Both the position numbers and the translations under genes were made by a program. A stretch of 64,000 bases of DNA from Candidatus Babeliales bacterium (GTDB taxonomy: Bacteria; Babelota; Babeliae; Babelales; UASB340), in NCBI GenBank assembly GCA_041650475.1, contig JBAZLD010000005.1, positions 623 through 64,622 of the forward strand, given 5' to 3'. Below are positions 41,301 to 45,682 of the stretch, piece after piece. Position 1 is the first letter of the stretch. The number at the start of each line of letters is the position of its first letter. The notes beneath the pieces were generated by a model. It saw only the letters and a program-made list of their open reading frames with translations, was not told the DNA's origin and did no database searches.

Positions 41301-42359
41301 TTATTCTGCGCGCATTCTGCCGAATTTTTCCCTTCCTGTTGTCTCCCTGAGGTCTGCATATCTTGAGCTACTACGTAATCTTTCAGGTGACGGTCTATCA
41401 GTAGTTCTACGTCCTACCTGAGATTCAACCTCTTTAGATAAGATTTCTTTAGCATCGGTTAAGTATTGTAATGCAAGATCTATTTCTTCAGCAATATCAA
41501 CATTTCTGGGATTCAATATATCTTCTACCTCTAATAAATTTTTCATAATACTTTTTATTTTTTCAGCTTCTATTGCATAAGAATCTGGTCTTTGACCTCT
41601 TAATTTTTCGGTTTCATACGAATCAATGTCTTTTATAAGGTTTTGTACTATTTTTAATGATTTATTCATAGCAAGACGAGTAGTTACTTCTCCTTCCATT
41701 AATATACCATATGCTTTTTTTAAATTATCTATTATATATCCAGCATCATCTTTTTGTATGTAAATTACTTCTGGAATCTTAGTCTCCTCAATTTCAACTC
41801 TTCTAGTACCAGGAATTGTTCTTGTTGGTTCTCTTCTTGGTGTCCTATATTCATATTCATCTTCCTCTTCTTCGCCAGGTTTTGGTTTCAAACCAAGTTC
41901 TTTTCTTGTTTGTTTTTGGCCCTCTTTAATTTTATATCTTAAAGCTTTCTGGCCTGCTTTTATTTGTTCCTGTAAAGCCTCTCGTCCTATATCAGCAAAA
42001 CCTTTTGTAGTTTGAATAGCAGCTTTAGCTATCTCTTCAGCTATAGCACTTTTCGCAAATTGTCCTAACCCCTCTTTTACCCTTTGTCCAGTTGTTTTTG
42101 TTCCTTTTGGTGATTGGTATTGAGTTGTAGTAACAGTAGGTTCTTCGTAAGCTTTAGGTTCTTCGTATACCCTTGGATCGTCATATTGAGTTGTAACTGG
42201 TTGCGAATATTGAGTTTGAGTTGTTGGTGCAGCATATGTTGTTGTAGGTGCAGCCTTTGTTGTTGTAAGTACCTTTTTTTTAATTACTGCCAAAACTTGG
42301 CTGCTATTTGCAAAAAAACATGCAAATATAAATAAACTTAAAAACCTTAAGTTTTTCAT
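41301..42359 (-). CDS. Secreted hypothetical protein (Thr/Pro/Tyr-rich N-region, helical C-region)
   Basis: 352 aa. Signal peptide MKNLRFLSLFIFACFFANSSQVLA. GGGGGA lies upstream. Confidence 0.7.
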   Translation of the reverse strand: MKNLRFLSLFIFACFFANSSQVLAVIKKKVLTTTKAAPTTTYAAPTTQTQYSQPVTTQYDDPRVYEEPKAYEEPTVTTTQYQSPKGTKTTGQRVKEGLGQFAKSAIAEEIAKAAIQTTKGFADIGREALQEQIKAGQKALRYKIKEGQKQTRKELGLKPKPGEEEEDEYEYRTPRREPTRTIPGTRRVEIEETKIPEVIYIQKDDAGYIIDNLKKAYGILMEGEVTTRLAMNKSLKIVQNLIKDIDSYETEKLRGQRPDSYAIEAEKIKSIMKNLLEVEDILNPRNVDIAEEIDLALQYLTDAKEILSKEVESQVGRRTTDRPSPERLRSSSRYADLRETTGREKFGRMRAE

Positions 42360-42489: not shown

Positions 42490-42612
42490 CCCAGGGCACA
42501 CGCCCTGAGCTAACAGAAGTACCGCAGCACCTCAAAGCTTACGCTTTTGTTGCGCAGCTGACCACCTATTTGCAGCAAAGCAAATAAAATCAAACTTTGC
42601 TTAAGCAAAAAT
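42490..42612. repeat. Left arm: array of about four short hairpins
   Basis: The hairpins are cagggc-acac-gccctg, caaagc-ttac-gctttg, atttgc-agcaaa-gcaaat and tttgc-ttaa-gcaaa. Confidence 0.75.
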
Positions 42613-42616
42613 AAAA

Positions 42617-43072
42617 TTAATTATTAAATCTATTCTTATATCTATACTTAATACTATTTTTTTTAAGCATTAAAACATATTCTTCTTCACAATTCATAAT
42701 TTCGTGGTGTTTTTCCTGGTTTTGAATATAGTTTTTTATTTGCTCAATCTCTCTTCTTCCAACAGAAAAAATACTGTATCCATTTTGCCATCCGAAATTT
42801 TTATCAAAGCAATCACGAACGTATTTAGATGAGTTAGACTTGAGACACCTTATAATATCAGGAACATTTTCTCTAAAATCCGTTATTTGTAAAAGTATAT
42901 GTATATGATCTTGAGTACCTCCAATTTCTACTAAATGCCAATCTTTTTTTAAAGTTATTCCGTATATAAAATTATATAATTTTTTCTGAAAATCCTTTTT
43001 TATTAAATTTTCTTTATCTCTAGTTCCCCAAACAATATGAAAAAATATGTTTATATATGCATGATTAGACAT
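42617..43072 (-). CDS. Y1 (HUH) tyrosine transposase, IS200-like / REP-associated (RAYT) type
   Basis: 151 aa. It has FFHIVWGTRDK, the HUH motif DHIHILL, WQNGYSIFSVG and the C-terminal YIQNQEKHH block typical of this family. Confidence 0.85.
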   Translation of the reverse strand: MSNHAYINIFFHIVWGTRDKENLIKKDFQKKLYNFIYGITLKKDWHLVEIGGTQDHIHILLQITDFRENVPDIIRCLKSNSSKYVRDCFDKNFGWQNGYSIFSVGRREIEQIKNYIQNQEKHHEIMNCEEEYVLMLKKNSIKYRYKNRFNN

Positions 43073-43140
43073 TTATTCCCCCAAAATTAAACATAAATAA
43101 AATTATTAAACGCATATTTTAAATAAAAATTTATAATTAT

Positions 43141-43262
43141 CAAAGGATTAACTTTTGCGAAAGCAAAATTTGCTCTTAGCAAAAATCAGTCAGCTTCGAC
43201 AAAACAGTGTAACTGTTTGGTGAAGTGGCACTGTCGTTAGCTCAAAGCGTGTGCTTTGGGCC
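43141..43262. repeat. Right arm: inverted copy of the hairpin array
   Basis: The reverse complement reads cccaaagcacacgctttgagctaac..., which aligns with the left arm cccagggcacacgccctgagctaac.... The equivalent hairpins are caaagc-gtgt-gctttg, aacagt-...-actgtt, tttgct-...-agcaaa and ttttgc-...-gcaaaa. The arm ends 1 nt from the kdsA stop. Confidence 0.75.
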
Positions 43263-43263
43263 T

Positions 43264-44118
43264 TCAAGTCATCTCAGGCATTATTCGATTTTTTATCCAA
43301 GAATCCAATTCGATTAAATACTTTAATAAGATTTCTAATTGGCAAAGACGAATAGAATTAGGACCATCTGAAAAGGCTTGTTCAGGATTATCATGAACTT
43401 CTAAAAATAATCCAGCTATACCTTGTACGATGGCAGCAGCTGCCAAGTTAGGGACAAATTTTCTATCCCCTCCAGTCGAACAACCTTGACCGCCAGGCCT
43501 TTGAACAGAATGGGTGGCATCAAATACTATTGGATACCCGAAATTTTCCATAATCGGAAAATTTCGATAATCTACAACCAAATTATTATAACCGAACGTA
43601 TAACCACGTTCGCAAAGCCAGATATTTTGATTTCGCGTACTTTCTATTTTTTCTATTGCAGATTTCATATTTTCAGGTGCAAGAAATTGCCCTTTTTTAA
43701 CATGAATAATTTTGCCAGTTTTACCTGCCGCAATTAACAAATCTGTTTGCCGACATAAAAATGCAGGAATTTGTAAAACATCTGCAACTTGAGCAATACT
43801 CTCAACTTGCCAAGTTTCATGAACATCAGTAACTATTGGAAGCTCAAAATTTTTACGTATTTTTTCAAAAATTTTAAGACCTTGTTCAAAACCAACACCA
43901 CGTTTTCCTGAAATAGAGATTCTGTTTGCTTTATCAAAAGAACTTTTAAATATTAAGTTAAACTTTAACTTTTCAGATATTTTTTTTAGAAATTCGGCCA
44001 TTTTTAAAGCATGCTCTTCGCTTTCTATGCAACATGGCCCCATAATAAAAAAAATTGGATTTTTATTATCTTTAATATTTTTTAAATTATTAATTTTTGC
44101 TTCAAGATTTATTGGCAT
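43264..44118 (-). CDS. kdsA: 3-deoxy-D-manno-octulosonate 8-phosphate synthase
   Basis: 284 aa. It contains FKSSFDKANR, IQIPAFLCRQTDL, DATHSVQ and FLEVHDNPEQAFSDGPN, the KDO8P synthase blocks. Confidence 0.9.
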   Translation of the reverse strand: MPINLEAKINNLKNIKDNKNPIFFIMGPCCIESEEHALKMAEFLKKISEKLKFNLIFKSSFDKANRISISGKRGVGFEQGLKIFEKIRKNFELPIVTDVHETWQVESIAQVADVLQIPAFLCRQTDLLIAAGKTGKIIHVKKGQFLAPENMKSAIEKIESTRNQNIWLCERGYTFGYNNLVVDYRNFPIMENFGYPIVFDATHSVQRPGGQGCSTGGDRKFVPNLAAAAIVQGIAGLFLEVHDNPEQAFSDGPNSIRLCQLEILLKYLIELDSWIKNRIMPEMT

Positions 44119-45647: not shown

Positions 45648-45682
45648 GTTCGTAGTGAGCCTTCGACAGGCTCAGGGCGAAC
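45648..45682 (-). other. GC-rich intercistronic stem-loop (REP-like?)
   Basis: The minus strand reads GTTCG-CCCT-GAGCC-tgtcgaa-GGCTC-ACTA-CGAAC. It contains CGCCCTGAGC, which is identical to 42501-42510 in the transposase left arm. Confidence 0.5.

Follow-up and report, generated by a model that had tools for sequence, protein, structure and literature searches.

The REP/RAYT system (REP, repetitive extragenic palindrome) serves as the standard example of a bacterial transposase that became domesticated, and has been tied to one protein class, that with the Y---NP motif. Its genomic units, known as REPtrons, consist of a RAYT (TnpA-REP) gene between inverted REPs and are accompanied by REPIN doublets (E. 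coli rayT/yafM, PDB 4ER8); the literature on them reportedly includes Nunvar 2010, Bertels & Rainey 2011 and Ton-Hoang 2012. The unit analysed here is 773 bp long (positions 42490-43262) and contains a Y1 gene between two inverted hairpin arms. It lies in a window of 64,000 nucleotides (the whole stretch of DNA analysed) on a contig of 88 kb from an uncultured member of the Dependentiae (TM6), whose assembly is a metagenome-assembled genome (MAG) of 1.39 Mb in 65 contigs with 31% GC. It is probably a REPtron-like unit whose enzyme, a Y1 nuclease of subclass 1.2, acts on single-stranded hairpins; that it is a real example of a kind of element already outlined in the literature, with an enzyme of this IS200-related subclass, is well supported.

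The subclasses were defined by Quentin et al. (2018, PMC6006769), who split the Y1 superfamily into classes and listed the signatures of each subclass in their Table 1. Subclass 1.2 appears there as a low-copy sister of the IS200 transposases, with the motifs DH[IV]H, WQ and YIKNQKEHH (Y---Q--HH), a median length of 148 amino acids (aa), a specific C-terminal domain, ∼36% identity between the few copies found within one genome, and hosts that are mostly Cyanobacteria and Bacteroidetes. The same survey assigns every tnpA-REP gene a REP family of its own and describes the REPs of REPtrons as inverted. A further survey (Bertels et al. 2017, PMC5581495) describes an 'IS200 Group 3' that is RAYT-like, with no duplicates, no members on plasmids and abundant flanking 16-mers; this is probably the same group as subclass 1.2, the equivalence being presumed rather than verified. 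Y1 genes placed between long (>100 nt) inverted arms, as here, are also found in the TIRYTs, to judge from the abstract of Di Nocera et al. (2013, PMC3733652). In contrast to the present unit, however, TIRYTs are mostly of subclass 2.1, with helix-turn-helix C-terminal domains, and their inverted repeats do not consist of GTAG-tagged hairpin modules (PMC6006769).

The catalytic residues of the 151-aa Y1 protein are intact: the HUH motif is H56-I57-H58 (in D55-H-I-H58) and the tyrosine is Y115, within a YIQNQEKHH motif that runs to residue 123. The WQ motif lies at W95-Q96, and both WQ and DHIH are invariant in the alignment of homologs; the C-terminal tail (residues 127-148) aligns with the SF.EE...LL...I.Y tail of the homologs, E131 and L136 being invariant. 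Pfam Y1_Tnp covers the whole domain (1.1e-23), and the NCBIfam model NF033573 (transpos_IS200) gives 72.7 bits, above its cut-off of 55. The best solved relatives by sequence are IS608 TnpA (7.6e-8) and ISDra2 TnpA. An AlphaFold (AF2) model (predicted local distance difference test score 86.4) has as its best fold matches IS608 TnpA (E 2.4e-9), ISDra2 and Sulfolobus IS200 transposases, with E-values around 1e-9, while E. coli RayT (4er8) is a weaker match (E 5e-5). The gene is under purifying selection; dN/dS was 0.12 in the comparison with a 70%-identical ortholog, for which dS was saturated.

A prior sequence-only reading had called the protein IS200/RAYT-type on its HUH, WQ and YIQNQEKHH motifs. 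The motifs and the IS200 affinity held up, but the RAYT affiliation did not: the Y motif is YIQNQ and not the Y---NP of class 2 RAYT/TnpA-REP proteins, the NCBIfam model NF047646 (REP_Tyr_transpos) gives 20.5 bits, far under its cut-off of 80, and E. coli RayT showed no phmmer match to the protein at E ≤ 1, which rules out a classical RAYT. That reading had also asked for the protein to be placed among IS200 and RAYT groups. It proved to stand apart from the multi-copy IS200/IS608 enzymes, as anticipated, and its place appears to be in neither group but in subclass 1.2. A word-based homolog search yielded 20 proteins; in a maximum-likelihood tree, built without the Quentin reference sequences, the window protein and its Dependentiae homologs fall inside a Y---Q--HH clade (support 94/94), neighboured by Bacteroidota, Ignavibacteriota and other proteins that bear this signature; the IS608/ISDra2 clade is separate and RayT far away. 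With DHIH, WQ and YIQNQEKHH, a length of 151 aa, a C-terminal tail and three genomic copies that are 41-46% identical, the protein appears from its sequence to fit TnpAY1 subclass 1.2 and not the classical RAYT family; as in that subclass, there is no tnpB partner beside the gene. The differences from published subclass 1.2 are the inverted hairpin modules with a GTAG-type foot, their dispersed cognate copies, and the host, a member of the Dependentiae. The enzyme shares with the TnpA proteins of IS200/IS605 elements (IS608, ISDra2, IS200; subclass 1.1) the minimal ∼150-aa HUH/Y1 core, known in those elements to recognise DNA hairpins. Those elements differ in having multiple near-identical copies, a tnpB gene in many cases, no HH after the Y motif and no C-terminal tail. 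The assembly contains one gene of that kind (C62:2027-2374, L012), which encodes a 137-aa IS608-like TnpA of subclass 1.1 on a 2.6-kb contig and groups in the tree with IS608 TnpA (98/97). The gene may stem from contamination, which is estimated at 5% for the assembly, or belong to a genuine IS200/IS605 element.

The left arm (42490-42612) and the right arm (43141-43262) are inverted copies of each other, as seen with an inverted-repeat tool, MAFFT and local alignment. The inverted-repeat tool paired 42490-42531 with 43219-43260 (42 nt, 74% identity), together with two further collinear pieces, and a local alignment between the left arm and the reverse-complemented right arm scored 45, the values for 500 shuffles having a mean of 14.8, a standard deviation of 2.3 and a maximum of 28. 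Clear homology is limited to the outer ∼75 nt (42490-42562 and 43189-43262). Further in, the remaining ∼50 nt have only TTTGC...GCAAA-type hairpins in common. The GC content is 0.46 in the left arm and 0.43 in the right, compared with 0.13-0.16 in the adjacent spacers and 0.28 in the window. When folded as single-stranded DNA, each arm forms 3-4 hairpins on either strand (z −3.9 to −5.2), and none of 200 shuffles was as stable. In both arms the outer hairpin is followed by the foot CTAAC, oriented to the gene, and on one strand of the unit one end reads hairpin-CTAAC and the opposite end GTTAG-hairpin, GTTAG being a one-base variant of the 5′ GT[AG]G tag typical of REPs. The outer hairpins have GG/CC in the left arm and AA/TT in the right, two pairs having changed on both sides and none on one side only, and a C.A mismatch is identical in both. 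The second hairpin reads AAAGC-TTAC-GCTTT in the left arm and AAACAG(T)-T(T)AC(A)-CTGTTT in the right; a homologous one (...GCAGCT) is present in the arms of genomes G002 and G003. The sequence-only reading had described these arms as GC-enriched inverted copies with about four hairpins each, the outermost differing only by two paired substitutions and the second keeping its stem and TTAC-type loop, with structure rather than sequence conserved, in a REPtron-like layout. All of this is borne out.

Homologs of the Y1 protein, with 39-47% identity, were found in seven other genomes of the same family. Most are bracketed by inverted arms of the same plan, namely an 8-bp stem CCCNNNGC/GCNNNGGG with an NNAC loop, a foot CTAAC or CTACC and, after ∼6 nt, a second hairpin. 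Read on the other strand, the module is G[GT]TAG and then a hairpin (exactly GGTAG in genus g7), which matches the layout of GTAG-tagged REPs (PMC6006769; abstract of PMC3733652). The genomes were searched with the pattern GCNNACGCNNNNNNCTAMC, in which the 5′ half of the stem was left unconstrained, using the reversed pattern as a control. The 12 family genomes gave 39 matches and 2 control matches, while 29 other genomes of the order gave 11 and 27, respectively. Matches were present in all eight family genomes with a subclass-1.2-type gene; in the four without one, the counts were 0, 0, 0 and one decayed copy (one-sided hypergeometric estimate, p ∼0.02). The module is, in short, enriched only in genomes carrying a subclass-1.2-type gene. 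The matches, being unbiased as to pairing on the 5′ side, supplied 29 distinct hairpins from 9 genomes for an analysis of covariation. Paired cells amounted to 84.9%, compared with 66.5% in shuffles (0/500), and double-sided changes to 40 cells, compared with 11.3 expected (0/500); the latter occurred at five of the six free pairs, and pairing fell to 10-40% in slid controls. Across the family as a whole, it is the structure that is conserved and not the sequence. Two peculiarities were seen among these relatives. In a sister genus, comparison of L143 (G009:C34) with L144 (G009:C31) shows that the second hairpin of only one of the two copies carries a nested 34-nt insertion (CTTATCCAGCCTTCGCCAAGGCTACGGCGGACGG) that is a hairpin itself. 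The g7 protein is truncated to 127-139 aa, without the C-terminal tail.

The genome of the window contains two paralogs of the Y1 protein, C2b and C2a (46% and 41% identity), in addition to the distant IS608-like gene; no copy of the gene above 46% identity was found in the 1.39-Mb assembly. Each paralog adjoins its own hairpin class, with the foot CTA[AC]C. Paralog C2b has hairpin-CTA[AC]C modules on both sides, inverted, and C2a has its own module on the 5′ side and a class B module on the 3′ side. Copies were located by structure-aware regular expressions (a hairpin, then CTAAC) and not by BLAST. The class B hairpin (GCGGGGCA...GCCCAGCG) is present in 10 copies, two of which flank C2b as its inverted arms, and the class A hairpin (NNCCTAG-N6-CTAGGNN) at ∼14 loci, one of them beside C2a. 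The hairpin of the right arm recurs exactly once, as CCCAAAGCACACGCTTTG-AG-CTAACGA, in a solo 30-nt element on contig C9 with no other part of the arm beside it. The genome census of hairpin copies that the sequence-only reading had proposed was thus productive for the classes of the paralogs, but for the class of the window it added a single copy. Many class A and B copies form inward-facing, REPIN-like doublets of ∼180-210 bp, with the hairpins ∼140-190 bp apart, and the plan of these doublets (hp1-CTAAC-hp2, an AT-rich spacer, hp2′-GTTAG-hp1′) is that of the gene-carrying unit minus the gene. Four class B doublets on different contigs (C4:112193, C6:29524, C11:42737 and C13:38154) are near-identical over >150 nt, and therefore gene-less elements cognate to C2b have spread recently. 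Three enzyme/hairpin lineages coexist in the genome, that of the window having barely spread.

Compared with REPtrons, the system is alike in that inverted hairpins enclose a single gene and each paralog has a hairpin family of its own; further common features are a conserved unpaired foot tag (GTAG in REPtrons; GTTAG here and GGTAG in a sister genus), dispersed intergenic doublets that face inward, a low gene copy number and the HUH/Y1 fold. It is unlike them in the protein, which is of class 1 (Y---Q) and not of class 2; in the number of copies, which is 3 to ∼14 here and tens to hundreds for REPs; and in the modules, which are bipartite (two hairpins, ∼55-75 nt), the doublets (∼180 bp) being longer than typical REPINs.

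By analogy with IS608 TnpA and with E. coli TnpA-REP, the hairpins would extrude when the DNA becomes single-stranded, for instance on the lagging-strand template. The cognate module would be the 8-bp GC-rich hairpin with its NNAC loop, the CTAAC foot and the second hairpin, two inward-facing copies of which bracket the gene. A dimeric enzyme would bind stem, loop and foot, and might then cut and rejoin the strand near the hairpin through Y115, with a metal held by H56 and H58; specificity is likely determined by the conserved mismatch together with the NNAC loop and the foot. Binding, cleavage chemistry, the strand used and the elements mobilised are all inferred here, as are cutting and mobility themselves. 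The outcome may be that hairpin modules and gene-less doublets are moved or amplified, rather than that the unit routinely moves itself.

Several observations weigh against a REPtron-like unit of this kind. A BLAST search of the genome with the entire left arm returned only that arm, missing even the right one, and the hairpin class of the window has three copies in total (the two arms and the solo element). The protein scores far under the cut-off of the REP-associated NCBIfam model, as noted above. The closest ortholog (70% identity), encoded on a 1-kb Logan contig, lacks a hairpin arm in the 96 nt of its 5′ spacer; its 3′ flank ends after 39 nt, and the covariation of the arms was assessed without it. 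The contamination of the MAG is estimated at 5%, but housekeeping genes are present on the 88-kb contig. A block duplication in the sister-genus genome G009, described below, blurs the distinction between a domesticated and an IS-like (insertion sequence-like) element. Lastly, subclass 1.2 is tabulated as 'REP: no' (PMC6006769). This entry looks too strict, because genes of the same type outside the Dependentiae are also hairpin-flanked. Five such genes (L033, L017, L030, L025 and L022), from Acidobacteriota (the L017 MAG), Bacteroidota and Ignavibacteriota, have short GC hairpins in inverted orientation on their flanks. In some the hairpins form tandem arrays, as in an Ignavibacterium MAG (L033) with seven tandem copies upstream and four inverted copies downstream, and feet such as AATGTTTA take the place of GTAG.

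The main alternative is that the whole 773-bp unit is an autonomous selfish IS, with the doublets as its MITEs (miniature inverted-repeat transposable elements), rather than a domesticated REP-processing enzyme with its substrates. NCBIfam does place the protein among IS200/IS605 transposases, and the doublets share their ends with the gene-carrying units. In addition, the site after kdsA appears empty in relatives: sister genera have no Y1 gene there, in three genera kdsA is followed by a same-strand signal-peptide gene, and in genome G006 the spacer between kdsA and the next gene (∼130 nt) is about that of the window minus the 773-bp unit. This comparison rests on kdsA, spacer length and the type of the neighbouring gene, and leaves out the same-genus genome G001, whose kdsA is truncated at the end of its contig; for the gene next downstream in the window, tblastn gave no match to the genes that follow kdsA in the relatives and hence no sign of orthology. 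In G009, two copies are 95.5% identical over 489 bp with the similarity ending at the arms; therefore the unit and its arms were copied as a block, and the unit can move. Against an autonomous IS stand the absence of near-identical gene copies in the assembly, the paralogs being 41-46% identical, and the absence of a target-site duplication or any direct repeat outside the arms (score 17; shuffle mean 20). Known IS200/IS605 elements, moreover, have two subterminal hairpins on the same strand and no inverted ends, while inverted arms would present opposite strands at the two ends, in contrast to the same-strand left and right ends on which IS608-type excision relies. Genera g7 and g3 carry a related gene in the same position, between two paralogous outer-membrane-type genes, at 54% protein identity, and this kept position fits long vertical inheritance. 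A selfish IS is on balance unlikely; an IS that moves itself only rarely is compatible with the REPtron-like reading.

Far less probable is that the arms are host RNA or regulatory elements independent of the Y1 protein (stabilising or terminating the kdsA mRNA at its 3′ end, and serving the Y1 gene as a 5′ leader), their symmetry being incidental. The right arm does begin directly after kdsA, with which it would be co-transcribed: the stop codon is at 43264-43266, the arm as drawn stops at 43262 (the 1-nt distance noted in the sequence-only reading) and the hairpin proper at 43260. REPs are known as mRNA stabilisers (abstract of PMC3733652), and the inner edge of the right arm has a promoter-like site. 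A terminator scan, however, found neither a terminator-like site nor a T-run after any hairpin on the minus strand of this arm, and an Rfam search at permissive E-values returned nothing relevant; the idea that the right arm might double as the kdsA terminator was rejected on the former ground. The arm may protect the 3′ end of the kdsA mRNA, as REPs are known to do. Such a side-function cannot explain the distribution of the module, which is enriched only with the gene type, flanks paralogous and orthologous Y1 genes elsewhere and also occurs as gene-less doublets. That the arms merely resemble each other by chance, as two GC-rich intergenic hairpin clusters might, has practically no probability left: their identity is only ∼74-78% and the inner halves align poorly, but the alignment score is ∼13 standard deviations above shuffles, the 20-nt hairpin of the right arm with GAGCTAACGA recurs exactly at a third locus, and the module is conserved across genera, so that shuffles, distribution and covariation already refute the idea.

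The features of the REPtron-like unit and of its surroundings are given in Table 1.

Table 1. Coordinates of the unit, its hairpins (hp) and the neighbouring features, in positions of the window
Feature	Position	Strand	Remarks
Orphan signal-peptide gene	41301-42359	-	Other neighbour of the Y1 open reading frame (ORF)
Left (gene-distal, 3′) arm, hp1: CCCAGGGC-ACAC-GCCCTGAG hairpin and foot CTAAC	42490-42514 (hairpin 42490-42509)	+	Inward-pointing
Left arm, hp2: stem CGCAGCA/TGTTGCG around AAAGC-TTAC-GCTTT, then AGCTGAC	42523-42562	+	
Left arm, inner AT-richer hairpins (TTTGCAGCAAAGCAAA; TTTGCTTAAGCAAA)	42563-42612	+	Only loosely similar to the right arm
Y1/HUH single-strand DNA nuclease/transposase gene, 151 aa, TnpAY1 subclass 1.2-like	42617-43072	-	Intact ORF; HUH, WQ and Y motifs and conserved C-terminal tail
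Shine-Dalgarno GGGGGA of the Y1 gene	43077-43082		
Promoter-like TTGATA-16-TAAAAT	43116-43143	-	Inner edge of right arm, ∼40 nt upstream of the Y1 start; consensus match only, 10/12
Right arm, inner hairpins (TTTTGCTAAGAGCAAA; TTTTGCTTTCGCAAAA)	43141-43188	-	
Right arm, hp2: outer stem CGACA/TGTCG around AAACAGT-TAC-ACTGTTT, then AGCTGAC	43189-43235	-	
Right (gene-proximal, 5′) arm, hp1: CCCAAAGC-ACAC-GCTTTGAG and CTAAC	43236-43260	-	Plus strand reads GTTAG and hairpin
kdsA (context)	43264-44118	-	Pfam DAHP_synth_1 at 2.8e-74; unit directly 3′ of the stop codon

Two other hairpin elements were seen. In genus g2 (L054, G002:C18), a GC-rich hairpin island of another kind, ∼100 nt long (TATCACGGGAGCATGCTCCCGTGATA...), comes after the kdsA stop codon, and hairpin elements therefore seem to land repeatedly at the 3′ end of kdsA. 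In the window itself, a solitary GC-rich hairpin (GTTCGCCCTGAGCCTGTCGAAGGCTCACTACGAAC) lies at 45648-45682 on the minus strand; its loop motif, TGAGCYTGTCGAA, occurs seven times in the genome, in GTTCG...CGAAC hairpins, a family distinct from the Y1 arms. The 10-mer GCCCTGAGC that this hairpin has in common with the left arm looks coincidental.

The locus and its relatives have the genomic logic of the REP/RAYT system built on an IS200-like enzyme of subclass 1.2, and the hairpin-flanked genes of Acidobacteriota, Bacteroidota and Ignavibacteriota suggest that the arrangement is general. Whether subclass 1.2 Y1 enzymes amount to a second lineage of REP/REPIN-type systems, with IS200-type catalytic motifs and a gene-specific, bipartite hairpin address that spreads as gene-less doublets, is a proposal for which we judge the chances even. 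If confirmed, it would settle the discrepancy between two surveys, one of which has the subclass as REP-less while the other has what is probably the same group as RAYT-like, and REP-type partnerships would either have arisen more than once or predate the class split. The known mechanism would be left unchanged by the finding. Confirmation would also make three small, distinct enzyme/hairpin pairs available for work on specificity, and this 1.4-Mb Dependentiae genome, in which the three pairs coexist at different levels of activity, would be a compact natural system for studying how Y1 nucleases read hairpins. For the Dependentiae, hairpin modules of this type explain many of the GC-rich islands in their AT-rich genomes.

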